DNA of 64,000 nucleotides, from positions 2,979 through 66,978 of the forward strand of contig CAYQPQ010000002.1 in assembly GCA_964420045.1 (NCBI GenBank). The letters are read 5' to 3'. Shown piece after piece: positions 1 through 31,529 of this stretch (position 1 is its first letter; each line of letters opens with the position of its first letter). This DNA is from an uncultured Bdellovibrionales bacterium. Its GTDB lineage: Bacteria > Patescibacteriota > Minisyncoccia > Moranbacterales > UBA1568. The translations under genes and the position numbers were made by a program. The notes beneath the pieces are model-generated. The model ran no database searches. It was not told the DNA's origin and saw only the letters and a list, made by a program, of their open reading frames with translations.

Positions 1-1297
1 AACGTTCTCCCTATAGTATAGATCGATTCGTTTCGAACGACAACAAAAAAATGAAAACGGGCACAAAAACGGGAAAATGCGGAACCCCCGAATCCATACG
101 GAAACACCCGAATCGAACATTTCGAATGGGTACGGGTACTCCTTTGAAGATGAAGATGGCAAGGATTGAGTGAAACAGCGAGTACCTTCTTCTGCAAGGA
201 GGCTCCGGCTTCCCGATACGAAGAAAACAGAAACGACGCGCAGTTGAACGCGCCCTCGAAGAACGACGCACTCGCTCCCGCTCCCAATGAATGAAAGTCC
301 CTCGAAAGTGAATCACAAAACTTCTCCCTCTGAGTTGTGGCGAGCGAACCCCGCCGAGAGGCGGGGGAGCGAGTAGAAAGAATGACTCGACAATCCTAAA
401 AGTGTCCCGAGTACTCTCGGGACTCCTTATTCGGAGAACGTCACCCCGCCCCGAGGGCGGGGATGGGGGTGGGAGCGTACCCGTATTGTCGGGCGAGAGA
501 GTGGAGCGTGAGACGTACTCGTCGAACTCCTCAATGAACCCGTGCCCCGTCGCGTCCCGTAGCATTTTTCGGTACTCCGAAAATGCGATTAGGGGGCAAA
601 AGGCGAGAGGTTGGGTGAATCGCCTTTTGAGCACCCCGATGGAGAGCCCTATCCCCCCTGCATAGCAATTAGGACTCCTATCATTATTGGGGTACGCCGG
701 GGTTGGGGGGTGCAGGGGGGAGGGTCGGCTCGGGGTGCGACCCCTACTGGATGGGTGGCTGTTCCCCGAGGACGGCGAGGGGGACAGGCACCCTAGCGAC
801 GACTCTCTACTGAGAGCTCCGAGTATGCTCTCGGGGCACCGCTTCCCCGTACCCGTGCCTGTATGACGCGCGAATCCGAAGAGGCTTTATCCATAATGAA
901 CCCGTACCCTTCGCCCGAGGAAAGTTGCGCCCCGAGTATGCTCTCGGGGCACCTTTTCCTCGTACCGGCATTAATGAGTGTTTTGGCTTGAAATGAGGAC
1001 AAATATCTGATAGAGTAAAAATGCACACAACTCAATTTCATCGAAGTGGAAGCGATGTATTTTTTTACATCGTTTCAGCGAAAGGGCGACCTTCGTTACG
1101 ACTTCGATGAGGAGTTGTGTGCAAACGAGTGGTCGTCCTTTTGTGTTTGCACTCATGTACTCCTCACGCCATTCTCGACATTCATTCTTGAGATACAAAG
1201 GCGGTCGGCCGTTTTGGGAATGGACTGTTGCTGACATTGTTCTCTACTTCGTTTTGCTTGGGATCATTCTATTGCTCACTCTTTTTGAGAATTGAGT

Positions 1298-3073
1298 ATG
1301 AAATACGTCATCTACGCGAGAAAATCTACCGAAAGCGAAGACCGACAAACGCTCTCGATTCAGTCGCAGATTATCGAAATGCAAGAGATTGCAAAACGCG
1401 AGAATCTCGATATTGTGAAATTGTTTCAGGAATCGAAATCAGCAAAAGCGCCGGGGCGTCCGGTGTTTTCCGAGATGATCGAGTTTATCAAAAAGGGCAA
1501 AGCGGACGGAATACTTTGTTGGAAAATCGATCGTCTCGCAAGAAATCCACTTGATGAAGGGCTGATCAAATGGATGCTTCAAAAGAGCGAGATCAAACAA
1601 ATCAAAACATCCGAACGCGATTACAATCCGGAAGACAATGTGGTCATTGCGAGCATCGAGTTTTCCATGGCGAATCAGTACATCCGAGACTTGAGCCGAA
1701 ACGTGAAACGCGGACAAGCGGAGAAAGTGCGGCGAGGAGAATATCCGAGCTCCCCTCCCCTCGGGTACACGGGCGATCCCAAAACGAAGCGATTGATTAT
1801 CGTCGAGAAAGAAGCGAGGTGTATCAGAAAAGCATTTGCTCTCTACGCGGCAAAAAGTCATTCGATCATTTCGATTACCGAAGAGTTACAAAAAGAAGGG
1901 CTTCGAACTCGTCGAGGAAGGATCATCTACAAGTCCACGCTCCATCGTATCCTCACCAATCCCATCTACTGCGGAATGTTTGAGTGGAACGGACAAACCC
2001 ACGCAGGAACGCACGAGCCGATTGTTTCGAAGAAACTCTTTGACGAAGTGCAACACATACTCTCCCCGGCGCAGTTTGTCCGACGGACGGAATCATGGAA
2101 GTACACCTACCGCGGACTCATGATGTGCGGCGAGTGCGGACTTAAAGTAACCGCGGAAAAGCAGAAGGGTCATGTCTACTACCGATGCACCAAAACATTC
2201 GGGACACACCGCTGTTCGCAACCGTACCTGCGCGAAGAAAAACTCATTGAACTTATCGGCGAAGAGTTGAAAAGAATTCAGTTTGATGAAGAGATTCTCG
2301 ATCTTGTGGTGGATGCGTCCAAAGAGAAGTACGCTTCCATGGGAGCAGACACCGCCGAGCAAGAAAAGACACTCCTTGCCGCTCTCAAAGAAAATCAAAG
2401 TCGGAAGGATTCGCTTGTGGAAAAGTTTATCGACAATGCACTTCCAAAAGACATCTACGATCGAAAGTTCTCCGAGCTCTCGGAAGAAGAAGCGGGCATC
2501 AGGGAACAACTTCAAGATATGCAAACACAGGACGGGAAGGTTATTGAGAACATTGAGACAGCGGTACAGTTCATCAAGACCGCGCATGACCTCTTCAATC
2601 GAGGCGACGAAACCGTCAAAAGAGAGGTCGCCTTTCTCGTATCTTCGAACCTGGGGTTAAAGGACCGAAAGATCGCGTATTTCAACCTCAATGACCCCTT
2701 CTCGTGGCTCGTCGAAGACGCGTCGTCCCTTCTTCCTCAAAACACAACCCTCGAACCGGCGTTTGTGCGCTTCCCAAAAGGAAAAGCAGTCTCTCATGAG
2801 ACTGCTCGTTCTGTTCTGCGGAGAGGCAGGGATTCGAACCCTGGAAGGGGTTTCCCCCTTAACACATTAGCAGTGTGCTGCTTTCAGCCGCTCAGCCACC
2901 TCTCCAAGTTCTCACAAATTTTCAATGAGCTACGCGCCAAGCAGACTGTAACTCCCCCAAAACAGCTTCATTGCTCGAAGTACCGAGGGACACGCATAGA
3001 AAGAGTGTATCACTGCCAAACACCCTCTGGCAAGACAAGAAACACGCGACCAGTTCGAGCAAATAGACTTTGA
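1298..3073 (+). CDS. Large serine recombinase (resolvase/invertase catalytic domain, recombinase domain, zinc ribbon, coiled coil). The ORF track's frame starts at a TTG at 1292; the first ATG is 1298. There is no in-frame stop until 3073, so the C-terminal ~90 aa read antisense through tRNA-Ser and are probably not functional
   Basis: The N-terminus VIYARKSTESEDRQTLSIQSQ is the hallmark serine-recombinase catalytic motif, with the nucleophile Ser in YARKST. A Cys-rich segment CGECG...YYRC...HRC is followed by a long coiled coil, as in large serine integrases. The 3' end of the ORF overlaps the tRNA at 2819-2905 on the opposite strand. Confidence 0.8.
   Translation: MKYVIYARKSTESEDRQTLSIQSQIIEMQEIAKRENLDIVKLFQESKSAKAPGRPVFSEMIEFIKKGKADGILCWKIDRLARNPLDEGLIKWMLQKSEIKQIKTSERDYNPEDNVVIASIEFSMANQYIRDLSRNVKRGQAEKVRRGEYPSSPPLGYTGDPKTKRLIIVEKEARCIRKAFALYAAKSHSIISITEELQKEGLRTRRGRIIYKSTLHRILTNPIYCGMFEWNGQTHAGTHEPIVSKKLFDEVQHILSPAQFVRRTESWKYTYRGLMMCGECGLKVTAEKQKGHVYYRCTKTFGTHRCSQPYLREEKLIELIGEELKRIQFDEEILDLVVDASKEKYASMGADTAEQEKTLLAALKENQSRKDSLVEKFIDNALPKDIYDRKFSELSEEEAGIREQLQDMQTQDGKVIENIETAVQFIKTAHDLFNRGDETVKREVAFLVSSNLGLKDRKIAYFNLNDPFSWLVEDASSLLPQNTTLEPAFVRFPKGKAVSHETARSVLRRGRDSNPGRGFPLNTLAVCCFQPLSHLSKFSQIFNELRAKQTVTPPKQLHCSKYRGTRIERVYHCQTPSGKTRNTRPVRANRL
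2819..2905 (-). tRNA. tRNA-Ser (anticodon GCT), class II with a long variable arm
   Basis: The reverse complement reads GGAGAGGTGGCTGAGCGG...GCACA-CTGCTAA-TGTGT...GGGGGAAACCCC...CAGGGTTCGAATCCCTGCCTCTCCG. It has a 7-bp acceptor stem, a GTTCGAATC T-loop, an anticodon loop CTGCTAA and a long variable stem-loop. Confidence 0.88.
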
Positions 3074-3378
3074 GGTAACAGTGGTGCGGAGGCTTGCACA
3101 AAGGTGAGAAGTATGCTACACTCGCGCTAGTAGTAAGTTTTCTCTCAATGAGTTTCTGGCGGAATCCAGCACCTTTTTTGGCAAGAGTCCCCGTATCATG
3201 AGCGTGAAAGCGAAGCGGCTTCGCCTTTACACATACGATGATATCAAGGACTTTATCTGAAAAAGGTGCTGGACATTCTAAGGGCGAGATATTCGAGCTT
3301 TTAGGGAAAGCGGGAGCAGGTAGAGGAGAAAGAAGGTCGGCTTACTCGCGTTACTCTTACCTTAGAATCAGAATTTCT

Positions 3379-3690
3379 ATGGCACAGAAGCTCTACGTCG
3401 GTAACCTCTCATACGGCACCACGGACGACAGCCTCCGAGAAGCATTCTCAGAAGCGGGATCCGTTACGTCGGCGAGCGTTATTACCGATCGTGCCACCGG
3501 TCGTTCGAAAGGCTTCGGCTTTGTCGAAATGGCTAGTGATGCGGATGCCGAAAAGGCTATCTCCATGTGGAACGGAAAGGATCTCGATGGTCGCACCCTC
3601 GTAGTAAACGAGGCTCGCCCATTCGAACCCCGCCCGCGCCAAGGTGGAAACGATGGCGGTTACGGCGGTGGCAACAAGCGGGACTGGTAA
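3379..3690 (+). CDS. RRM-type RNA-binding protein with a glycine-rich C-terminus
   Basis: MAQKLYVGNLSYGTTDDSLREAFSEAG...RSKGFGFVEMA carries the RNP2 (LYVGNL) and RNP1 (KGFGFVEM) motifs. The tail is GGNDGGYGGG. Confidence 0.85.
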   Translation: MAQKLYVGNLSYGTTDDSLREAFSEAGSVTSASVITDRATGRSKGFGFVEMASDADAEKAISMWNGKDLDGRTLVVNEARPFEPRPRQGGNDGGYGGGNKRDW

Positions 3691-3781
3691 TTCTCTCCTG
3701 CTTCGAGTTCTCCAAAGAAAAACTCTCCGAGCAATCGGGGAGTTTTTTATTCCTTCCTCATTATAAACAATACAGCAACGT

Positions 3782-4960
3782 TTAATGCACCGTGACGGGC
3801 GTGCCGATGTCTGCCCAATTATAGACGCGCTCGGCAGGACCGACACCGAGGCGGACACAGCCGTGCGAGACCGGCGTGCCAAGATGATTTGCACCTTCCT
3901 TGTAGCCGCCCGGCCACTCAGGCAGTTCGTGAATGCCATATTTCCCGCTTGCCACAAGTGCCATCCAATACGGCATATAGAGCCCATAAGCCTTGGACCA
4001 CGGGCGCGGCGCCTTATTGTGAATCGTATAGTTCCCCTTCGGCGTATCCATTCCCCGCTTGCCCGACGAAACCATATAGGCATCAACAGCCTTCCCATCT
4101 TCAAAAGTTGTCATGACCTGCGTCTCCACATTGATATCGATATATTTTCCCGTGGCGACAACCGGCACCGTATAGCGCTTCGCATTGAGAAGTCGCGTCG
4201 GAAAATCCGCAGCCATAACCGTCGGCGCAGGCGGCAATGTCTCAAAACTTCCTTCATATGCCGTTTCAAAAGATGCGTCCGATGATTCCCGATGGCGCAC
4301 TCGAACCGTCAATGAATACTTCACGCCCGATTGAGTGTCCCGCGGGAGAATGCGAAACTCCTGCTTATCAGAATCAATGCCATACACCACTGCCTTTTCT
4401 CCATTGAACGAGAAATCAAGAAAAGAATCTTCCGCCGATCGATCAAGATGTACCACGACCGGATCCTCTGCTCCGAGTAGCACATCTCTCGCTCCGTCAC
4501 TCGGCGAGACCGATTCCACTTTTGGCGGCGCCCAGGTTTCGAAAAACAGCTTCGTTTCCGGGATCGACCCCAGCCACACGGTTTTCCCTGCCGGCAAAAG
4601 AAGTGAATACCGAGTCCCGGACAACCAATGCCCAACCGGCTTTACGAGAAGCTTCCGATCATCGTTCGTCCATTCAAAAATGACCGGCGTATCCGGCACA
4701 AGCCGGACAGCGTCAGCGAATCCATCCACATCAACCGAAGACGGAAAAGTCACCCCGAGCACACTCTCCGGCTTTACGCCCGCCACCGACACATCAAGCA
4801 TCGGTCGCGCTTCAAGAATGCGTGCATACGCTCGAAATCCATACACTCCCGCCGACGAAAGAAAGAGACCGATGACAAAAAGAGGCAATATGCCCCATGA
4901 CGTCTTTCGCTTTCGCTGACCGCGCAACTGATTTTCTCCCGATGAAAAATTGAAATGCAT
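3782..4960 (-). CDS. L,D-transpeptidase (YkuD domain) with an N-terminal membrane anchor
   Basis: The C-terminal HLGTPVSHGCVRLGVGPAERVYNW segment holds the catalytic His/Cys of the YkuD fold. A transmembrane segment sits at the N-terminus. Confidence 0.75.
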   Translation of the reverse strand: MHFNFSSGENQLRGQRKRKTSWGILPLFVIGLFLSSAGVYGFRAYARILEARPMLDVSVAGVKPESVLGVTFPSSVDVDGFADAVRLVPDTPVIFEWTNDDRKLLVKPVGHWLSGTRYSLLLPAGKTVWLGSIPETKLFFETWAPPKVESVSPSDGARDVLLGAEDPVVVHLDRSAEDSFLDFSFNGEKAVVYGIDSDKQEFRILPRDTQSGVKYSLTVRVRHRESSDASFETAYEGSFETLPPAPTVMAADFPTRLLNAKRYTVPVVATGKYIDINVETQVMTTFEDGKAVDAYMVSSGKRGMDTPKGNYTIHNKAPRPWSKAYGLYMPYWMALVASGKYGIHELPEWPGGYKEGANHLGTPVSHGCVRLGVGPAERVYNWADIGTPVTVH

Positions 4961-5069
4961 AAAAGCTCAGAGATTCATTGCAGTGAAAGAAAACATGCCT
5001 AACTTCCATCCCGCGCAAGAGGCCATTCCGAACTTTCGAGCGGAATGGCCTCCGAAAAAATACGAAGCC

Positions 5070-5267
5070 CTATTGCGGCATTGATGACGAACCCATACCG
5101 GTTCCGCATGCCCGACAGTTCTTCTTATGCGTCGCCACTTCATAGAGCGCCGCCGCACCCACGAGTACATAAATAAGACGCGATACAGGAGCATCCATTC
5201 CGCCAAACAAAAAATCGCCGATATCCGAACCGAACACCCCGACGAGCAACCAATTAATTCCCCCCAA
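5070..5267 (-). CDS. Small membrane protein, DUF378 family
   Basis: The 65-aa protein MGGINWLLVGVFGSDIGDFLFGG...RLIYVLVGAAALYEV resembles the DUF378 two-helix pattern. Confidence 0.45.
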   Translation of the reverse strand: MGGINWLLVGVFGSDIGDFLFGGMDAPVSRLIYVLVGAAALYEVATHKKNCRACGTGMGSSSMPQ

Positions 5268-5420
5268 CGATGAGGAGAATGAAGGCTGCCATATGCATCA
5301 TCTTCATACGCGTGCGCGTAAATAATTATGCTTTCGCTCTCTGCAAAAATTATACCACGAAAATGAAGACGTCGGGAGATGTGTCAATATGAAGAGATTC
5401 CAACTGCCAACATGAAGCAA

Positions 5421-6278
5421 CTACTGTCTCGCTTGATGAATAACTCTTTGAGGAAATGGAATCTCAATACCCTCTTTGTCAAAAGCGATCTTGAGGCGCT
5501 TTCGAAGCTCGCCTGTCACATCCCACTGCTTAATCGGCTGCGTATCGCCGAGAATTTTTATGACAACCGCCGAATCACCAAAGTCATCGACGCGAAGAAA
5601 TTGCGGCGGCGCAATAATCATATCCTTCCAATCCGGATCCTCGGCAAGTTCCTTGCCAACACGGTTCACCACCGAAATCACCCGCTCCAAATCAGCAGAA
5701 TAGGCAATGCCAATATTGAGATTGACCCGGGAAAAATTCTTGGACAAGTTGGAAACCTGTTTCACTTCTCCGTGCGGCACGTGATGCACAACGCCATCAA
5801 GGTCGCGAAGCGTCGTCATACGCAAACTGATATCCTCAACCAAGCCACAGGTGGTATCGAAACACACCACATCGCCGATGCGATACTGATTCTCCATAAT
5901 AATGAAAAGTCCGCTGATGAGATCGCGAATAAGATATTGCCCGCCGAAGCCAAAAGCGATGCCTGCCACTCCCGCCGCCGCCAGGAGCGGCCCCACCGCA
6001 AAGCCGAGTTCGGACAAGAGCATAAGCCCGACAAGCACCCACAACAATATATTGACCGATGTTACAAAGATACGAATAAGCGTATCCTCGCGCTTTCGCT
6101 CCGCTTCCTTGCTCAAGAATCGACTCGGCACCACCAGCCGACGCACCGACTTCTCGATAAACACCCCAACAAACCGCTGAATCAAAAGCGCCGCAAACGC
6201 AATCGCAATCACTTTCACCCCATGATCCAAAAACCACGGCGCCAAACTCTGCACACTCGTTTGAATAAGATTCTGCAT
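5421..6278 (-). CDS. mscS: Small-conductance mechanosensitive channel (MscS family)
   Basis: Transmembrane helices are followed by a conserved beta-domain ...FGFGGQYLIRDLISGLFIIMENQYRIGDVVCFDTTCGLVEDISLRMTTLRDLDGVVHHVPHGEV, typical of MscS. Confidence 0.85.
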   Translation of the reverse strand: MQNLIQTSVQSLAPWFLDHGVKVIAIAFAALLIQRFVGVFIEKSVRRLVVPSRFLSKEAERKREDTLIRIFVTSVNILLWVLVGLMLLSELGFAVGPLLAAAGVAGIAFGFGGQYLIRDLISGLFIIMENQYRIGDVVCFDTTCGLVEDISLRMTTLRDLDGVVHHVPHGEVKQVSNLSKNFSRVNLNIGIAYSADLERVISVVNRVGKELAEDPDWKDMIIAPPQFLRVDDFGDSAVVIKILGDTQPIKQWDVTGELRKRLKIAFDKEGIEIPFPQRVIHQARQ

Positions 6279-6312
6279 AAAAAATTCTGTTAAACACTCG
6301 CGATCAAAAGAG

Positions 6313-6399
6313 CGGTGGGGGTGAGATTCGAACTCACGGTACCGTTTCCGGTACGGCAGTTTTCAAGACTGCTACCTTAAACCGCTCGGTCACCCCACC
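6313..6399 (-). tRNA. tRNA-Ser (anticodon TGA), class II
   Basis: The reverse complement reads GGTGGGGTGACCGAGCGGTTTAAGGTAGCAGT-CTTGAAA-ACTGC...GGAAACGG...GAGTTCGAATCTCACCCCCACCG. It has a long variable arm, a GTTCGAATC T-loop and anticodon TGA. Confidence 0.88.
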
Positions 6400-6518
6400 A
6401 GAAAGAGCCCGCAGCGCCAAAAGCAAGTCACACACTTGCTTCTTTCCAGACTATCAAGAAAGAAACGGCTTGTAAAACATGCTATACTACATACGTTGAA
6501 AAGAATTTTCAGAAGCAT

Positions 6519-6986
6519 ATGGGAAGCAATGCCCCGCAAATCACCTGGTCGGCACCGGAATTCGACGCGTCGCCTGTCCACTCGCGCGTGCTGCTCGCGC
6601 TTCTTGGCGTGTTTCTCGCCATCATTGTCTATGCGCTCATCGAGAACAGCTCCATCATGGCCATCACCTTTGTGCTTTTGGGAACGGTCACACTCCTTCA
6701 CAGCCGCAAGCCTCCAAAAACACTCGACTGCGCCATCACATCCGAGGGCGTGATCGTCGAAAAAGAAGCCTATATGTTCGACAATATAGCCTCGTTTTGG
6801 ATCATCTACGAAGAAGACGAGCGCAGCCTTTTCTTGAAAACGCACGGATCACTCATTGCTTCCGTCCGTGTACCCCTCGGATCCATGAACCCAACCACTG
6901 TCCGAGACGCCCTTCTCCCCTCTGTAAGAGAAATAAAATACGAGCCGACGATTGTTGACACACTCTCTCGTTTCCTGCATATTTAA
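6519..6986 (+). CDS. Hypothetical membrane protein (two transmembrane helices)
   Basis: The ORF has a hydrophobic hairpin LLALLGVFLAIIVYALIENSSIMAITFVLLGTV and sits in a coding-like context. No motif was recognised. Confidence 0.4.
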   Translation: MGSNAPQITWSAPEFDASPVHSRVLLALLGVFLAIIVYALIENSSIMAITFVLLGTVTLLHSRKPPKTLDCAITSEGVIVEKEAYMFDNIASFWIIYEEDERSLFLKTHGSLIASVRVPLGSMNPTTVRDALLPSVREIKYEPTIVDTLSRFLHI

Positions 6987-6996
6987 ACGAGGTTGC

Positions 6997-7198
6997 GCGC
7001 TCGTAGCTCAGTGGATACCTGCCTGCCGGTAGGCGGGGAGCGCCTGGTTGGTATCCAGAAGGTTGTTGCTTTATACACAATCGTAATTCATGTTTTTGCG
7101 CTCGTAGCTCAGTGGATACCTGCCTGCCGGTAGGCGGGGAGCGTCTGGTTGGTATCCAGAAGGTTGCTGTTTTATACACAATCGTAATTCATGTTTTT
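6997..7198 (+). repeat. Two tandem 101-bp repeats, each a truncated tRNA 5' half followed by a spacer. The fragment spans acceptor arm, D-arm and anticodon arm and carries a 20-nt insertion in the D-loop region
   Basis: Units begin at 6997 and 7098 (period 101) and the intact tRNA begins at 7199. Each unit reads GCGCTCGTAGCTCAGTGGATA+cctgcctgccggtaggcggg+GAGCG(C/T)CTGGTTGGTATCCAGAAGG and then diverges into ttatacacaatcgtaattcatgttttt. Neither unit has a T-arm or a 3' acceptor strand. Confidence 0.8.
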
Positions 7199-7271
7199 GC
7201 GCTCGTAGCTCAGTGGATAGAGCGTCTGGTTGCGGTCCAGAAGGTCGCAGGTTCGATTCCTGCCGAGCGCA
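7199..7271 (+). tRNA. tRNA, 73 nt, anticodon GCG (Arg); the isotype call is tentative
   Basis: The sequence is GCGCTCG-TA-GCTC-AGTGGATA-GAGC-G-TCTGG-TTGCGGT-CCAGA-AGGTC-GCAGG-TTCGATT-CCTGC-CGAGCGC-A, a canonical cloverleaf. Anticodon loop positions 34-36 are GCG. Confidence 0.8.
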
Positions 7272-7398
7272 CACTGACACAAAGTACAAGGATTTACACC
7301 TCTCCAAGAAAGATAAAAGACAGGCTCTTCGCCTGTCTTTACTATATTCATCGACAAAAACACGTGAAAGCTTCGCCATGCAGACGTCAAGACACTTC

Positions 7399-7962
7399 CT
7401 ACGCGCCACTCCAAAAGCTCATCATGATGCCGAGATCGCGAGTGTTCACCACATTGTCCGTATTCACATCCGCCGAAAGTCCCGATCCTGTCTGAAGCCA
7501 CTGCGCAACCAGTGCGGTAAAGTCAGCGAGTGAATATGTTTTTGTCTGTGTATTCGTCTCAACACTCGTCGACTTCGCCGACTCGCCAAACCCGCTATAT
7601 GCCGAGACCGCATACACATAGGTTCCCGATGAAAGCCCGGTGTCGGAATAGGTTGTTGTTGTCGCATTGGTTGTTCCAATTTGCACAGTCGGAGTACAGC
7701 CAGCACCACCGCACCGATATACATTATACCCGGCGAGCCACCCGTCCGAAACCGCATCCCACGACAAATTGATCTGTGTTGTCGAGGGAGACGAAGCGAC
7801 AAGATTTGCCGGCGTCGGCGGCGCACCCGCAGGAGGCGGAGGCGGAGGCGGAAGTGCTGCAAATGCCGCCGGCACAAACAGCACCGCAATCGAGAGAAAG
7901 CCGAGAATTGCTCCCGTAAGCATCCGGTTTTCTTTTGCAAAGATGCCTAATTTTTGTTTCAT
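7399..7962 (-). CDS. Secreted or anchored protein with a proline-rich linker, an FN3-like domain and a C-terminal dockerin-like calcium-binding repeat
   Basis: An N-terminal hydrophobic segment is followed by PPPPPPPAGAPPTP and then ...NLSWDAVSDGWLAGYNVYR, which is FN3-like. The C-terminal ADVNTDNVVNTRDLGIMMSFW fits the dockerin pattern D-x-N-x-D-x-x-V-N-x-x-D-L. Confidence 0.6.
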   Translation of the reverse strand: MKQKLGIFAKENRMLTGAILGFLSIAVLFVPAAFAALPPPPPPPAGAPPTPANLVASSPSTTQINLSWDAVSDGWLAGYNVYRCGGAGCTPTVQIGTTNATTTTYSDTGLSSGTYVYAVSAYSGFGESAKSTSVETNTQTKTYSLADFTALVAQWLQTGSGLSADVNTDNVVNTRDLGIMMSFWSGA

Positions 7963-8016
7963 AGAATTCTACGCTGCATGGATTAAATCACATTCCTCAC
8001 TTTTCAAAGACTCAAC

Positions 8017-9888
8017 CTATCGAACGCGAATGAGAATCGTCTTTGAGGTGCTATTGCCAACATCATCATATACCTTGAGCTGGAACACATGGAGACCCGT
8101 CGGCGTATTCGCCGGAATATTGAACGATTTGCTCTTCGTAGTCTTCCAATACCCAAGGAACTGATAGCGGTAACGATCTATGTCTTCGTTATCCTGTGCA
8201 TCCCACCACACTTTTTCGCCACGCGACTTCGTGAGAAACCGAGGAAGATCGGTGATTTCGGGATCCTTGTCATCCACAAAGACATTGTAGGAAGCGGATT
8301 TGTCCACCTCGTTTCCATTTGCATCGATATAGCGCACCGCATATCGAGACGTGCCGTTTTCCTTCTCGGTTACCTTGATCGACCAATTTCCATCGCCATC
8401 CACCTTCGTACTATCCTTCAACTTTCCCTCTCGATAAATCTCAACCTTTCCGTTCTTAATGTCCGCATCCGATCCCTTAAACGAAAGCTTCGAATCATCC
8501 GTCATGAAATCATCGCGTTTTCCGAATTTCGTCTTTTCTCCGATAACCTTGATAGGATCTCTCGAGAATTCTCCTTTCCGATCCGAAGCGCCCGCAGCGC
8601 ACGACCGTTCGGTATCCGGGTTACCACCTGCGCATCCGGCAGGGCTTCCTTCGGCATCACGAGTCTGCACCCCGCCAAGACATCTCCCCCATTCGCCATA
8701 TGTAAAGCTCGAACAGGTTGTGACAGGAGGTTCATACGCACAGCTCTGACTCGACGAAGGTGGCGTACCACCGGAGCACCCGGCTGGAACTCCTGTTACT
8801 GCTCGCGTCTGCGTATTATCAACCTGGCAAGCGCCCCAGTCAGATGTATTGAAATTCGTGCAGGTCGTACTTCCACCGGTATAGGTACAGCTCTGTGTCG
8901 ACGCCGGCGGATTTCCACCAGTACACCCCACAGGAATACCCGTCACCGTCTGCGTCTGCGTGCCATCCGGTTGACATGCGCCCCAGCCAGATTCTGTGAA
9001 ACTTGTGCACGTCGGCGGCGTGTAGGCACACGATTGTGTCGTCTCCGGTACAGCGCCACCGGAACACACATCGGGAATCGTCGAGACAACCGTCTGTGTC
9101 TGCGTGCCATCCGGTTGACATGCGCCCCAGCCCGAATAGACATAGCCGGTACACGCCGGCGCACCCACGAGCGCCCGAATACCGGAAACGCTCGACAGCA
9201 AATCATTAGCGGATCCTCCCTCTTCAATAACGTCCGAATCGGTCTCGTTGTCCTGACCGATAAAGGTATATCGAATATTGTTTGTCGTCGAAGAGACCGA
9301 GCGAAGCGCTTTAAACGTCAGCGTTGCCACAAGACCCGAATTGTTTCGAACTCCCGGCGACGGCTTGGCAAGTGTCAAAGAAATCGTACCCCCCGCAGTA
9401 TCGTTATCCACAATCTGACATGGATTCCCTTGATACACACAGCTGTTGTCAACGCCGAATATGGAATTGCTCGTATCCCATCCCGTCAGTTGAAAATCCG
9501 CAGGATCATACGTCACCAAAGCACGCGTCGCAACAACGTCCATACCGCCCGTATCAACCACCAGATCCACGGAAAACGTATCGTCTTGAGCGACATTAAT
9601 CGTGGTTCCATCTCCGGTTGCGTCCGGCGATGTCATCGATAATGTTGCCGTTCCACTTGCTTTGGACAAACTCTCGATTTCCAGCGACACACTCCACACA
9701 AACGATACGAACGCGCCGGATATAAAAGCGAGCATAAAGAGCCCTTGCCAGGTCTTTACGCGCGTTCGCGACACAAACACCCACGACTTCCCCAAAAACG
9801 GCAGAGTATCTCCCGCAAGGTTGTCAATATGCCGATTTATAGTCCCCCCCGTTTGAAGAGGATCTTTCTTTTGTTTTTCTTCCGCCAT
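8017..9888 (-). CDS. Membrane-anchored surface protein with an N-terminal cohesin-like domain, four tandem Cys-rich repeats of about 38 aa and a C-terminal Ig-like region
   Basis: A transmembrane helix GLFMLAFISGAFVSFVWSV is followed by TINVAQDDTFSVDLVVDTGGMDVVATRALVTYDPADFQL...GLVATLTFKAL, a pattern like type I cohesin. A repeat of the form C..F..S.WGACQPDGTQTQTV.G.P.GC.GG.PP...QSC.Y occurs four times; the matching nucleotide direct repeats lie at about 8745-9200. Confidence 0.6.
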   Translation of the reverse strand: MAEEKQKKDPLQTGGTINRHIDNLAGDTLPFLGKSWVFVSRTRVKTWQGLFMLAFISGAFVSFVWSVSLEIESLSKASGTATLSMTSPDATGDGTTINVAQDDTFSVDLVVDTGGMDVVATRALVTYDPADFQLTGWDTSNSIFGVDNSCVYQGNPCQIVDNDTAGGTISLTLAKPSPGVRNNSGLVATLTFKALRSVSSTTNNIRYTFIGQDNETDSDVIEEGGSANDLLSSVSGIRALVGAPACTGYVYSGWGACQPDGTQTQTVVSTIPDVCSGGAVPETTQSCAYTPPTCTSFTESGWGACQPDGTQTQTVTGIPVGCTGGNPPASTQSCTYTGGSTTCTNFNTSDWGACQVDNTQTRAVTGVPAGCSGGTPPSSSQSCAYEPPVTTCSSFTYGEWGRCLGGVQTRDAEGSPAGCAGGNPDTERSCAAGASDRKGEFSRDPIKVIGEKTKFGKRDDFMTDDSKLSFKGSDADIKNGKVEIYREGKLKDSTKVDGDGNWSIKVTEKENGTSRYAVRYIDANGNEVDKSASYNVFVDDKDPEITDLPRFLTKSRGEKVWWDAQDNEDIDRYRYQFLGYWKTTKSKSFNIPANTPTGLHVFQLKVYDDVGNSTSKTILIRVR

Positions 9889-31131: not shown

Positions 31132-31529
31132 GGGGTTGTCTAGACTCGACAGGATGCACTTTGAAAATACGCAAGCCGATTATGAAGGTGATATCGCTAA
31201 TCTCCCCTTCACGATGATATCTGCAAAATTCATCACAAAGGCAAAGCAAGCCTTCGCGCAAGCGTTCCAGCCTGCTTTCGCTTCCGCTCTCGCCTAATTT
31301 CGGCAAGAGCCATCGGACTCCCAACTCCCGATAGGGAATGTTCCGGTGTCATATCTTCGGGAAAGCCCCCTGCTCTCGCTTTATGGAGTAGCGGTCGCTT
31401 CTGCACATGAGGCACGCCGACCCGTTTTCGCACGCTTCTACGGTCCGGCGCACACCAAGCGCGCTATGCTTGTAGACTATTTTTGAAACTCATCACTGGA
31501 CATGGGTGCAATTCCCATCAACTCCACTA
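31132..31529 (+). ncRNA. ssrA: tmRNA (ssrA), one-piece. The tag ORF would be AKFITKAKQAFAQAFQPAFASALA (24 aa), with resume codon GCA at nt 31223 and stop TAA at 31295
   Basis: The 5' end GGGGTTGTCTAGACTCGACAGGAT parallels E. coli GGGGCUGAUUCUGGAUUCGACGGGAU. The 3' end GGACATGGG-TGCAATT-CCCAT-CAACTCCA forms the T-arm and the acceptor strand that pairs with the 5' GGGGTTG, keeping the G3:U wobble. The resume codon lies 91 nt from the 5' end, the tag ends ...ALA-stop, and the gene is immediately downstream of smpB. Confidence 0.8.

Follow-up and report, generated by a model that had tools for sequence, protein, structure and literature searches.

The 64,000-nt stretch of DNA that we analysed (the window), from a Patescibacteria genome that is probably of Moranbacteria, begins with a plus-strand ORF for a large serine recombinase (LSR) abutting a minus-strand tRNA-Ser(GCT) gene, whose 3′ end points toward the recombinase. 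Both points had been made in the initial annotation, and both were confirmed using the ORF listing, ARAGORN and Rfam. The features of the locus, including those that we propose, are these:

1–2818, no strand: probable right-hand end of an integrated mobile element, whose left end (attL) would lie beyond coordinate 1
71–1020 (approximately), plus strand: candidate large structured non-coding RNA (∼850–950 nt), element-borne, with no convincing ORF
988–1016, plus strand: promoter-like TTGAAA-17-TAGAGT with TG, immediately ahead of the leader RNA, its extended −10 box conserved in the alignment
1021–1146, plus strand: conserved leader RNA with two predicted, mutually exclusive folds, one of them P1-P2-P3 and the other a long terminator hairpin with a U-tract after it
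1155–1295, plus strand: small ORF (46 aa) with an RYKGxxPxWxW motif and one hydrophobic helix
1298–2818, plus strand: element-encoded part of the LSR, 507 codons, with its Pfam domains, invariant residues and A118 alignment
2750–2755, no strand: TCGAAC motif whose position relative to the tRNA end is fixed (−65 to −67)
2771–2807, minus strand: intrinsic-terminator-like hairpin (2784–2807) and T-tract (2771–2783), just 3′ of the tRNA and within the LSR tail codons
2794–2821, no strand: putative P half-site and attR junction core, with shared core GCGG at 2818–2821, where homology with L001, L002 and L003 ends
2819–2839, no strand: putative B′ half-site (acceptor 3′ strand, T-stem 3′ strand and T-loop TCGAAC), from comparison with P′ sites
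2819–2905 by Rfam (58.3 bits) or 2818–2905 by ARAGORN, minus strand: tRNA-Ser(GCT), intact host gene
2819–3073, plus strand: read-through tail that ends the LSR ORF (85 codons, stop included), presumably encoded by host DNA

The LSR ORF was listed from 1292 or 1298 to 3073 (593 or 591 aa), and homologue N-termini (consensus MKYVIYARKST) set its start at the ATG at 1298. It is an intact large serine recombinase with the full domain architecture: Resolvase (PF00239, aa 4–148, E 1.2e-21), Recombinase (PF07508, aa 170–256) and Zn_ribbon_recom (PF13408, aa 272–324). Pfam identifies a serine recombinase and not a tyrosine recombinase of the Phage_integrase type. The nucleophilic serine S10, together with R8 and D78/R79, was invariant across 43 aligned sequences, as were the zinc-ribbon ligands C277, C280 and C297 in the homologue alignment. 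Residues 160–419 align with the C-terminal domain of A118 integrase (structures 4KIS and 6DNW), with low identity in the coiled-coil region (aa ∼330–419). The domain order (catalytic, recombinase, zinc ribbon with a putative coiled-coil region) is that of A118/LI, Bxb1, phiC31 and SPbeta SprA. With this architecture the protein is no small resolvase or invertase, which disposes of an earlier suggestion that it might serve as the resolvase of a local inversion system. Homologues align over 87% of the query. The fold probably extends to about aa 475–480, leaving aa 480–507 as a poorly conserved tail. Serine integrases recombine attP with attB through 2-bp staggered cuts and require a directionality factor for excision; no candidate for such a factor was identified.

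The reading frame meets no stop ahead of the tRNA and closes only at 3073. The overlap with the tRNA had been put at ∼90 codons. The read-through stands, but the codons antisense to the tRNA proper number only 29 (2819–2905); the other 56 (2906–3073) extend into its upstream region. The long ORF could in principle be artefact or chance, with a resolvase or invertase merely lying beside a tRNA and its frame lengthened by sequencing error, a missed stop or a frameshift, the last two having been offered at the outset. Taken alone, the window holds neither a second att site nor a recognisable phage gene, and by the estimate (61/64)^85 about 1% of random 85-codon stretches are stop-free at this GC content. 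We nonetheless consider this explanation practically negligible. An independent Logan assembly from a near-identical host strain (L084) has the same base as the window at every position from 2747 to 3073 and the same stop; because it reads through identically, the read-through is not an assembly error, and sequencing error, missed stop and frameshift are all excluded as its source. An alternative genetic code was also rejected, since the neighbouring genes are intact under table 11. LSR homologues at 89–91% identity likewise read into their tRNAs, with tails that vary with the adjacent tRNA (RDSNP.., GRPGSNRRPSA and ..PLGYSP), and the geometry is family-wide, both of which argue against chance.

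A full LSR is present in 77 related Patescibacteria (CPR) loci, and in 60 of these it is followed by a minus-strand tRNA, which starts at a median of 18 nt past the LSR core; 15 tRNA species are represented. A plus-strand tRNA was the first neighbour in none of the 77. Because so many loci share the one geometry and none has the opposite, the LSR-tRNA adjacency is far above chance. The LSR stop lies inside the tRNA in 40 loci and beyond it in 16 (56 in total), while three further contigs terminate within the tRNA. Two ideas of the initial annotation gain from these comparisons: an element placed at a tRNA 3′ end with its integrase beside the att site, which is the geometry of the 60 loci and of L084 (see below), and an att core overlapping the integrase 3′ end, since the overlap is family-wide. 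An antisense-T-loop peptide (DSNP and similar) occurs near the C-terminus in 68 to 80 of the best 120 protein homologues. The clade numbers ∼2,500 protein clusters at E ≤ 1e-10, with at least 583 matches in species-representative genomes, and the LSR-on-tRNA arrangement recurs across this large, apparently undescribed Patescibacteria clade. A metagenome scan with a single LSR protein returned 10 loci and no close complete element, and IMG/VR contained relatives at only 24–36% identity. An exact-match lookup of the 591-aa protein gave no record. Searches of the literature on tRNA-associated serine recombinases in CPR gave nothing specific.

Window positions 194–2824 are 90.5% identical to L001 8911–11527, and positions 71–1608 are 79% identical to L098 557–2077. 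Because these homologous contigs continue upstream into element genes, the window probably starts inside a small integrative element whose integrase is the LSR, as had been supposed at first. Upstream of window-like DNA, the related contigs carry helicase, methylase, exonuclease and peptidase genes. A 260-aa "gene" called upstream of the L001 LSR was dismissed as spurious, being of low complexity and broken in the window. No capsid, terminase, tail or conjugation genes were found in the cargo, up to 10 kb, of L001, L002 and L028. A complete element of 5.5 kb is present in L028, which runs from host recG through attL (5970–5989), 4 kb of cargo and the LSR to a tRNA-Ser(GCT). L084 is 99.7% identical to the window over 2612–8983 and carries, at the same tRNA-Ser, a 4.4-kb deletion derivative of the element with restriction-modification-like cargo upstream; it is thus a deletion variant at the same site and not an empty site. 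The window covers the right element end only, and its own genome yielded no attL, attP circle or empty attB. Terminal direct repeats were absent from all whole-contig loci, and a circular form was not demonstrated.

Homology among close relatives breaks at the tRNA. In L001, an LSR 91% identical to that of the window is followed by a non-tRNA "attP-like" mimic; in L002 and L003, LSRs 90% identical to it are followed by tRNA-Asp. DNA homology between the window and these three stops 6–22 nt into the tRNA, and that between L024 and L028 stops exactly at the tRNA end. The acceptor stem of the window's tRNA-Ser (GGAGAGG/CCTCTCC) is intact. Carriage of tRNA genes is frequent among mobile elements, and L009 and L011 share an identical tRNA-Trp and 40-nt block with unrelated DNA past the tRNA 5′ end, as if the tRNA were itself cargo, part of an LSR-tRNA module whose true boundary lies to the right of the tRNA. 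This seems very improbable to us, given that 90%-identical LSRs adjoin different tRNAs or none, that the window and L084, despite their different elements, keep 99.7% identity over more than 6 kb to the right of the tRNA, that P′ sites (described next) mimic the resident tRNA end, and that L001 already resembles an attP form without a complete tRNA.

The left ends of elements carry a tRNA-end mimic followed by a 5-nt spacer and TNGAAC. This P′ motif, GGGAC-N5-T[N]GAAC after acceptor-like bases, has 38 occurrences on the LSR strand across 1.5 Mb, against a single one on the opposite strand, and ∼25 loci have such sites. Nearly all of the 38 precede an LSR by 2.9–9.7 kb. Two are found downstream of an LSR start, and the L001 copy alone comes directly 3′ of the LSR gene. 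The first 10 nt of P′ match the resident tRNA at 6.9 of 10 positions, compared to 4.66 ± 0.26 for permuted pairings, with the best agreement across the first 4–6 nt. P′ matches the resident tRNA imperfectly, and its sequence is conserved from elements at tRNA-Tyr to those at tRNA-Leu; it is therefore a part of the element and no displaced tRNA end. For the window's subfamily, P′ is known from the single contig L001, whose tail matched L001 alone when searched against the window and all loci. The window and 8.8 kb of upstream L084 sequence contain neither a copy of the tRNA-Ser 3′ end nor a P′ motif. Lack of a duplicated tRNA 3′ segment had been put forward as grounds for refuting integration; the argument is not valid, the far-end piece being the element's imperfect P′ mimic, which in the case of the window would be located beyond coordinate 1.

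At the family level, the right half-sites are composed as follows: B′ has 16 nt of tRNA and then TCGAAC, while P′ has the mimic, 5 nt and then T[N]GAAC. LI integrase and this clade have in common short att sites whose attP and attB right half-sites share a motif shifted by 5 bp; the motif for the LSR zinc-ribbon domain occupies bp 16–24 of attP and bp 11–19 of attB (PMC3783163). By analogy, the 5-nt insert of P′ matches this known attP/attB shift. No clear dyad symmetry relates the left half-sites (P and B) to P′ and B′, and dyad scans of the L001 attP and of the reconstructed L028 attP and attB yielded no convincing centre.

These layouts bear on whether the locus is instead a classical tRNA island of the kind made by tyrosine integrases, with crossover in the T-loop, the last ∼16–20 nt of the tRNA supplied by the element, and a far-end piece that is a displaced host fragment. 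Perfect 16–20-nt direct repeats of the tRNA 3′ end, with identity ending in the T-loop, do occur in L023, L028 and L035, and such repeats fit both models. We think the classical island unlikely. Elements at different tRNAs (Tyr for L025 and L034, Leu for L035) share conserved far-end copies, and such copies often mismatch the T-stem of the resident tRNA (L051, L065 and most sites), so they are not its original end. The constant 5-nt insert ahead of TNGAAC is an attP signature of serine integrases, and LSRs that are 85–90% identical lose homology exactly at the tRNA end.

The terminator-like hairpin shows compensatory changes in L003, L007, L012, L014 and L042, and its G-U pairs are possible in the minus-strand RNA only. 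The terminator claim is limited to the subfamily with at least 49% LSR identity; a search for hairpin plus T-tract in distant subfamilies was rejected as too permissive in AT-rich DNA. In 11 of the 12 loci of that same subfamily the TCGAAC motif of 2750–2755 is present; its translation is F-E-P for some members and L-R-T for others. Two reading frames at a fixed position indicate constraint at the DNA level. This motif, at −67, has no role in our best explanation, and would gain one if crossover in the window's subfamily occurred left of the hairpin (about −40 to −72), so that TCGAAC lay in the att site and the hairpin and trailer were the native terminator of the tRNA. Identity blocks beginning left of the tRNA end speak for such a position. 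The window and L084 have 10 differences in 2615–2746 and none from 2747 on, a block starting at −72, while identity between L009 and L011 is 100% for the stretch that starts at −40 and includes tRNA-Trp, but only 35–40% at −40 to −80, with about 78% for the LSR. In our view a constrained P arm or homologous exchange accounts for these blocks; a more leftward crossover would also fit them. On balance we hold that crossover position to be quite improbable. Divergence of the 72-nt segment tracks the LSR rather than the tRNA: the segments at the tRNA-Asp loci L003, L012 and L014 are unrelated. The same segment (88–90% identical) follows the LSR beside tRNA-Ser, tRNA-Asp and the non-tRNA mimic. Identical tRNA-Gln genes in L007 and L064 have left flanks that are unrelated right up to the tRNA end, and in a sister subfamily the LSR ends directly at the tRNA.

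Our preferred reading, to which we give a probability of roughly 82%, is that an LSR-encoding integrative element is docked at the 3′ end of tRNA-Ser, with an attachment site that overlaps the last codons of the integrase. It is because of this overlap that the ORF would lack a stop of its own and run antisense through the host tRNA to a chance stop at 3073. The 3′-terminal ∼21 bp of the tRNA gene (acceptor 3′ strand, T-stem and T-loop TTCGAA) would form one attB half-site. The T-loop TTCGAA is near-universal, and the zinc-ribbon domain may be what recognises it. The attP would carry the tRNA-end mimic with TNGAAC displaced 5 bp outward, as in known serine integrases. Strand exchange would take place at the extreme 3′ end of the tRNA, perhaps in the core GCGG at 2818–2821. 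The tRNA would remain wholly or almost wholly host-encoded, with only its downstream flank swapped, and in the window's subfamily the element would provide a new terminator hairpin downstream of the tRNA. The tail at 2819–3073 would be present only in the integrated state, and the part of the ORF after ∼2818 would be state-dependent junk. The LSR domains, the tRNA, the family-wide geometry, the P′ motif with its strand bias and the break points of homology are direct observations, and we infer the exact crossover position, the recognition of the T-loop by the zinc-ribbon domain and the current mobility of this copy.

Two candidate RNAs and a small ORF precede the integrase. For the large RNA, 189 pairs were predicted (RNAalifold, 5 sequences), with 52 pairs changed on both sides compared to 27.8 ± 3.1 in shuffles, and 90.9% of cells paired compared to 40–48% with partners slid; its MFE z-score was −6.9 on the plus strand and −5.3 on the minus strand. 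Its covariance model (R2) found 6 members, all upstream of close LSR relatives. Scanning IMG/VR with a 17-mer from it, CCCGAGGACGGCGAGGG, gave 18 chance matches and no true members. The leader at 1021–1146 appears from its alignment to be a covarying terminator/antiterminator leader. Its covariance model (R1) gave 18 matches, all 150–280 nt upstream of a same-strand LSR. In P1–P3, 96.4% of cells were paired, as against 79.6% in shuffles; both sides have changed in 15 of the 25 pairs, and 12 pairs of the terminator fold have compensatory changes. Rfam had no match for either RNA. The stop of the small ORF overlaps the LSR start (TGAGTATG), and its codons are conserved in L002, L004, L005, L007, L011, L013, L014 and L098. 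One further idea is doubtful: the free form would read into the mimic and the integrated form into the real tRNA, giving different tails that could act as a directionality or dosage switch, replacing or joining the directionality factor, with the leader gating expression, and a change of ∼8 acceptor-like P′ bases would suffice to retarget the clade naturally to new tRNAs.

Known phage-type LSRs target protein-coding genes or intergenic sites, whereas this clade is found at tRNA 3′ ends, with at least 15 tRNA species used. It also differs from them in that one attP arm would be a tRNA-end mimic, and in that the ORF overlaps its own att site and is stop-free before the crossover. Islands with tyrosine integrases, as catalogued by Islander and TIGER, similarly have the integrase at the element end beside a tRNA 3′ end, a tRNA-like repeat opposite, and a preserved tRNA. 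Beyond the different enzyme family, their far-end repeat is a displaced fragment where ours would be an imperfect, element-owned mimic with a 5-nt insert, and their crossover falls in the anticodon or T-loop where ours would be at the extreme 3′ end.

An attachment site within the integrase reading frame is also known from SSV1-type archaeal integrases, for which attP lies inside the int ORF and integration alters the encoded protein. SSV-type integration splits the integrase gene into two inactive parts. Here, by contrast, all recognised domains are upstream of the junction and only the tail after aa ∼507 changes; because only this non-conserved C-terminal tail is exchanged, the integrated copy keeps a complete enzyme. 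The CcrAB recombinases of SCCmec, which are of LSR type, integrate at the extreme 3′ end of rlmH/orfX without inactivating it, and so resemble our case in using the extreme 3′ end of a conserved host gene. Their target is protein-coding, however, their recombinases do not sit at the element edge over the att site, and no tRNA mimicry is known for them.

To our knowledge, serine integrases are regarded as rarely or never using tRNA genes. Mageeney et al. (2020) described t(m)RNA gene use by serine integrases as previously unreported, listed 14 candidate cases among 297, and called for experimental proof (PMC7192596). Among the tycheposons of Prochlorococcus, 27 of 937 are reported to carry an LSR in place of a tyrosine recombinase (Hackl et al., bioRxiv 10.1101/2020.12.28.424599). 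As far as that description goes, these too are small integrative elements associated with tRNAs, and their cargo is of replication or defence type; they come from another host phylum, and the parts of the description used for this comparison mention neither ORF-tRNA overlap nor an attP mimic (10.1101/2020.12.28.424599).

For annotation, the arrangement is a trap: the DSNPR-type "C-terminal extensions" of these LSRs are antisense tRNA and not protein domains. The two structured RNAs beside the integrase are candidate new RNA families. Docking at tRNA 3′ ends is apparently the rule in this clade, whose members come from several CPR lineages and use many tRNA species. If the reading of T-loop and acceptor as a half-site is true, it would explain how safe sites are found in very small genomes, would constitute a natural case of serine-integrase retargeting via attP mimicry, and would offer short, conserved and predictable landing sites for integrase engineering.

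The reading frame that runs into tRNA-Ser, its neighbour with the 3' end facing it, proved to be real: on the + strand one ORF opens with the ATG at 1298, has its stop codon end at 3073, and encodes a complete large serine recombinase (LSR), much as the initial annotation had it. The features of this part of the window are:

1298–3073, + strand: LSR ORF
LSR residues 4–148: Resolvase domain (Pfam)
LSR residues 170–256: Recombinase domain (Pfam)
LSR residues 272–324: Zn_ribbon_recom domain (Pfam)
2819–2905, minus strand: tRNA-Ser(GCT), 3' end pointing at the LSR

In an LSR alignment of 43 relatives, catalytic Ser10 and the cysteines of the zinc ribbon were invariant, and residues 160–419 aligned with the C-terminal domain of A118 integrase (PDB 4KIS/6DNW). 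The enzyme is a bona fide large serine recombinase. The last ~90 codons had been said to overlap tRNA-Ser. Read-through to 3073 stands, but only 29 codons are antisense to the tRNA, with 56 further codons lying in the upstream region of the tRNA. A frameshift or missed stop had been offered as one source of this extended C-terminus. L084, an independent assembly from a near-identical sister strain, matched the window at every base of 2747–3073 and has the same stop, and sequencing error is therefore ruled out.

The other option offered, genuine overlap of the att core with the 3' end of the integrase gene, was supported by the relatives. Protein search returned ~2,550 LSR clusters at E ≤ 1e-10, chiefly from Moranbacteria and other Patescibacteria; homologues were usually 509–540 aa, and their aligned part was confined to the first 87% of the query. 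Their C-terminal peptides included GRRDSNPRP, GRPGSNRRPSA, RESNPRQ and GPKPxALPLGYSP, and such peptides were found at the C-termini of 68 of the top 120 homologues by a strict pattern and of 80 by a loose one. All of them are the T-arm and D-arm of the tRNA translated in antisense. Our set of loci comprised the window and 83 fetched loci; a full-length LSR was present in 77. A minus-strand tRNA followed the LSR in 60 of the 77, starting a median 18 nt past the conserved core, while a plus-strand tRNA was the first neighbour in none of the 77. The LSR stop fell within the tRNA in 40 loci, past it in 16 and ahead of it in four, so that 56 of 77 end inside or beyond the tRNA; three additional contigs terminate within the tRNA. 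Fifteen tRNA species serve (Gln, Ser with five anticodons, Trp, Asp, Pro, Tyr, Leu, Ile and Arg among the types), and several single metagenome-assembled genomes held two or three LSR-tRNA loci at different tRNAs. Overlap of LSR with tRNA is thus a property of the entire family.

T-arm-like sequence also followed the LSR in loci L008 (11512–11600; e.g. GGGTGGGATTCGAACCCAC) and L074 (11545–11630), where no tRNA was called by ARAGORN. They may represent tRNA genes with introns, as reported for Patescibacteria (PMC13011429).

The suggestion that the window begins inside a mobile element held up. Locus L001 matched window 194–2824 at 90.5% identity, and upstream of its LSR lie four small genes, a helicase, a DNA methyltransferase, a 3'-5' exonuclease and an M23 peptidase. 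L001 has no tRNA after the LSR, and L002 and L003, with LSRs 90% identical to that of the window, adjoin tRNA-Asp(GTC). Homology to the window in all three ended 6–22 nt into the tRNA, which is the extent of chance agreement between the two acceptor stems. L084 derives from essentially the same host, since it matched window 2612–8983 at 99.7% identity; the part of its LSR upstream of position 2612 has been removed by a deletion of 4.4 kb when compared with L001, and type I restriction-modification-like cargo lies further left. Since element DNA is shared next to other tRNAs or none, and given the L084 variant, the start of the window lies inside the element, whose left end is not present in the window. 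Through the L084 deletion (reverse complement 8660–9292) the beginning of an element gene (95% identity to L001 6753–6930) is fused to the final 207 nt of the LSR, and the resulting 173-aa chimeric ORF still reads on through tRNA-Ser. In L028, a complete element of a sister subfamily, host recG is followed by a repeat of the 3'-terminal 20 bp of tRNA-Ser, then by 4 kb of cargo, the LSR and tRNA-Ser(GCT). The cargo of the relatives showed no phage or conjugation genes, and close relatives were absent from IMG/VR.

Far-end sites in all loci shared one layout: 8–10 acceptor-like bases, GGGA(C/T), a 5-nt spacer (consensus GATGT) and T(G/A/C)GAAC. In the 1.5 Mb scanned, this motif occurred 38 times on the LSR strand vs once on the opposite strand. 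Nearly all 38 lay 2.9–9.7 kb upstream of an LSR, implying an element size of roughly 5–11 kb; two (L001, L062) were downstream of an LSR start. The tRNA itself has acceptor strand, T-stem, AT and TCGAAC without the spacer, so the element site is a tRNA-end mimic with its T-loop motif moved 5 bp outward. In serine integrases the zinc-ribbon-domain motif occupies attP bp 16–24 and attB bp 11–19 (PMC3783163), and the 5-bp shift between mimic and tRNA is exactly that attP/attB half-site relation. The mimic is kept in common by elements at tRNA-Tyr and tRNA-Leu (L025, L034, L035) and is frequently mismatched to the resident tRNA, above all in the T-stem. Its first bases track that tRNA, with 6.9 of 10 identical (4.66 ± 0.26 in permuted pairings) and the best agreement in the first 4–6 nt. 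These three observations show the mimic to be the element's own, and we therefore infer crossover at the very 3' terminus of the tRNA, with a putative core GCGG at window 2818–2821. The tRNA would remain host-encoded, integration swapping just its downstream flank. L001, the sole locus with the mimic immediately after the LSR, has the attP arrangement that a free or tandem form of the element should show. Left and right half-sites showed no clear symmetry.

Two to five tandem sites of the mimic (P') type, 0.4–2.7 kb apart, precede one LSR in L037 (327–6468), L073 (2155–4195), L021, L025, L080 and L083; they could be remnants stacked one on another, or satellite elements that lack an LSR and are mobilised in trans. 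Between LSR and real tRNA, L035 (11455–11622) and L025 (7910–8074) carry a ~170-nt GC-rich segment that opens with tRNA 3'-end-like sequence and, in L035, recurs at the far end of the element (5967–6140).

Two features mark the DNA just left of the tRNA end:

2807–2771, minus strand (that of the tRNA): hairpin and T-tract in element DNA downstream of the tRNA, in the window's subfamily
2750–2755: TCGAAC, at a constant −65 to −67 relative to the tRNA end (subfamily of at least 49% LSR identity)

Five relatives have compensatory changes in the hairpin, whose G-U pairs are possible in minus-strand RNA only; it looks like a replacement terminator for the tRNA. The KxKT peptide of the LSR tail is its complement. 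Apart from TCGAAC the tail is hypervariable, with no other conserved island; the motif is read in two frames among members (FEP or LRT), clearly pointing to DNA-level constraint. Identity blocks reach left of the tRNA end between the window and L084 (from −72) and between L009 and L011 (from −40). We attribute these to P-arm constraint or homologous exchange, because the segment's divergence follows that of the LSR rather than that of the tRNA (L003, L012 and L014, all at tRNA-Asp) and because identical tRNA-Gln genes (L007 vs L064) have left flanks unrelated right up to the tRNA end. The folded LSR probably terminates near residues 475–480; residues 480–507 are probably overprinted by the terminator hairpin and P arm, and residues 508–591 are probably host-encoded, present in the integrated state only.

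From the window start to the LSR we found no convincing protein gene except one conserved small ORF:

~71–1020, + strand: candidate large structured non-coding RNA, ~850–950 nt, upstream of the leader
1021–1146, + strand: leader RNA, ~125 nt, between a promoter-like site with extended −10 and the small ORF/LSR
1155–1295, + strand: conserved 46-aa ORF with RYKGxxPxWxW and one hydrophobic helix; its stop overlaps the LSR start codon

In some relatives a different small ORF occupies this place. The leader has two conserved folds that exclude each other: P1-P2-P3 (96.4% of cells paired, double changes in 15 of 25 pairs) and a long terminator hairpin with U-tract (12 compensatory pairs). It therefore looks like a riboswitch or attenuator. 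All 18 leader loci lie upstream of an LSR of the window's subfamily. For the large RNA, 189 pairs were predicted from five sequences, 52 with compensatory double changes (27.8 in shuffles), and the MFE z-score was −6.9; among its conserved loops are GGTACTCCG, GGGTGAAT and CCCGAGGACGGCGAGGG. Its covariance model, R2, has six members (the window, L001, L002, L003, L006 and L098), each just upstream of a close LSR relative. Neither RNA had a match in Rfam 15.

Elsewhere in the window, three 101-nt tandem units (6997–7272, + strand) each open with the first 21 nt of tRNA-Arg(GCG). Units 1 and 2 are tRNA-like fragments (D-arm, 20-nt hairpin insert, altered anticodon arm, no T-arm) and unit 3 holds the real tRNA-Arg; alignment overlaps suggest that copy number differs in L084 and L085. 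The tmRNA gene (31132–31529, + strand; Rfam, 89 bits) is ordinary.

Tyrosine-integrase tRNA islands are like these elements in geometry, but their defining features were absent here. The same applies to the SCCmec Ccr recombinases, which likewise dock on the 3' end of a gene, and to SSV1, whose att site is likewise located inside the integrase ORF. Serine integrases were described as "not known for targeting tRNA genes" by Mageeney et al. 2020 (PMC7192596), who listed 14 candidate cases among 297 and called for experimental proof; the tycheposon study (bioRxiv 10.1101/2020.12.28.424599) gives LSR in 27 of 937 tRNA-associated elements. Our literature search found no LSR-tRNA elements of this kind in Patescibacteria (CPR). 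The departures of this family from known large serine recombinases are its target and its layout.
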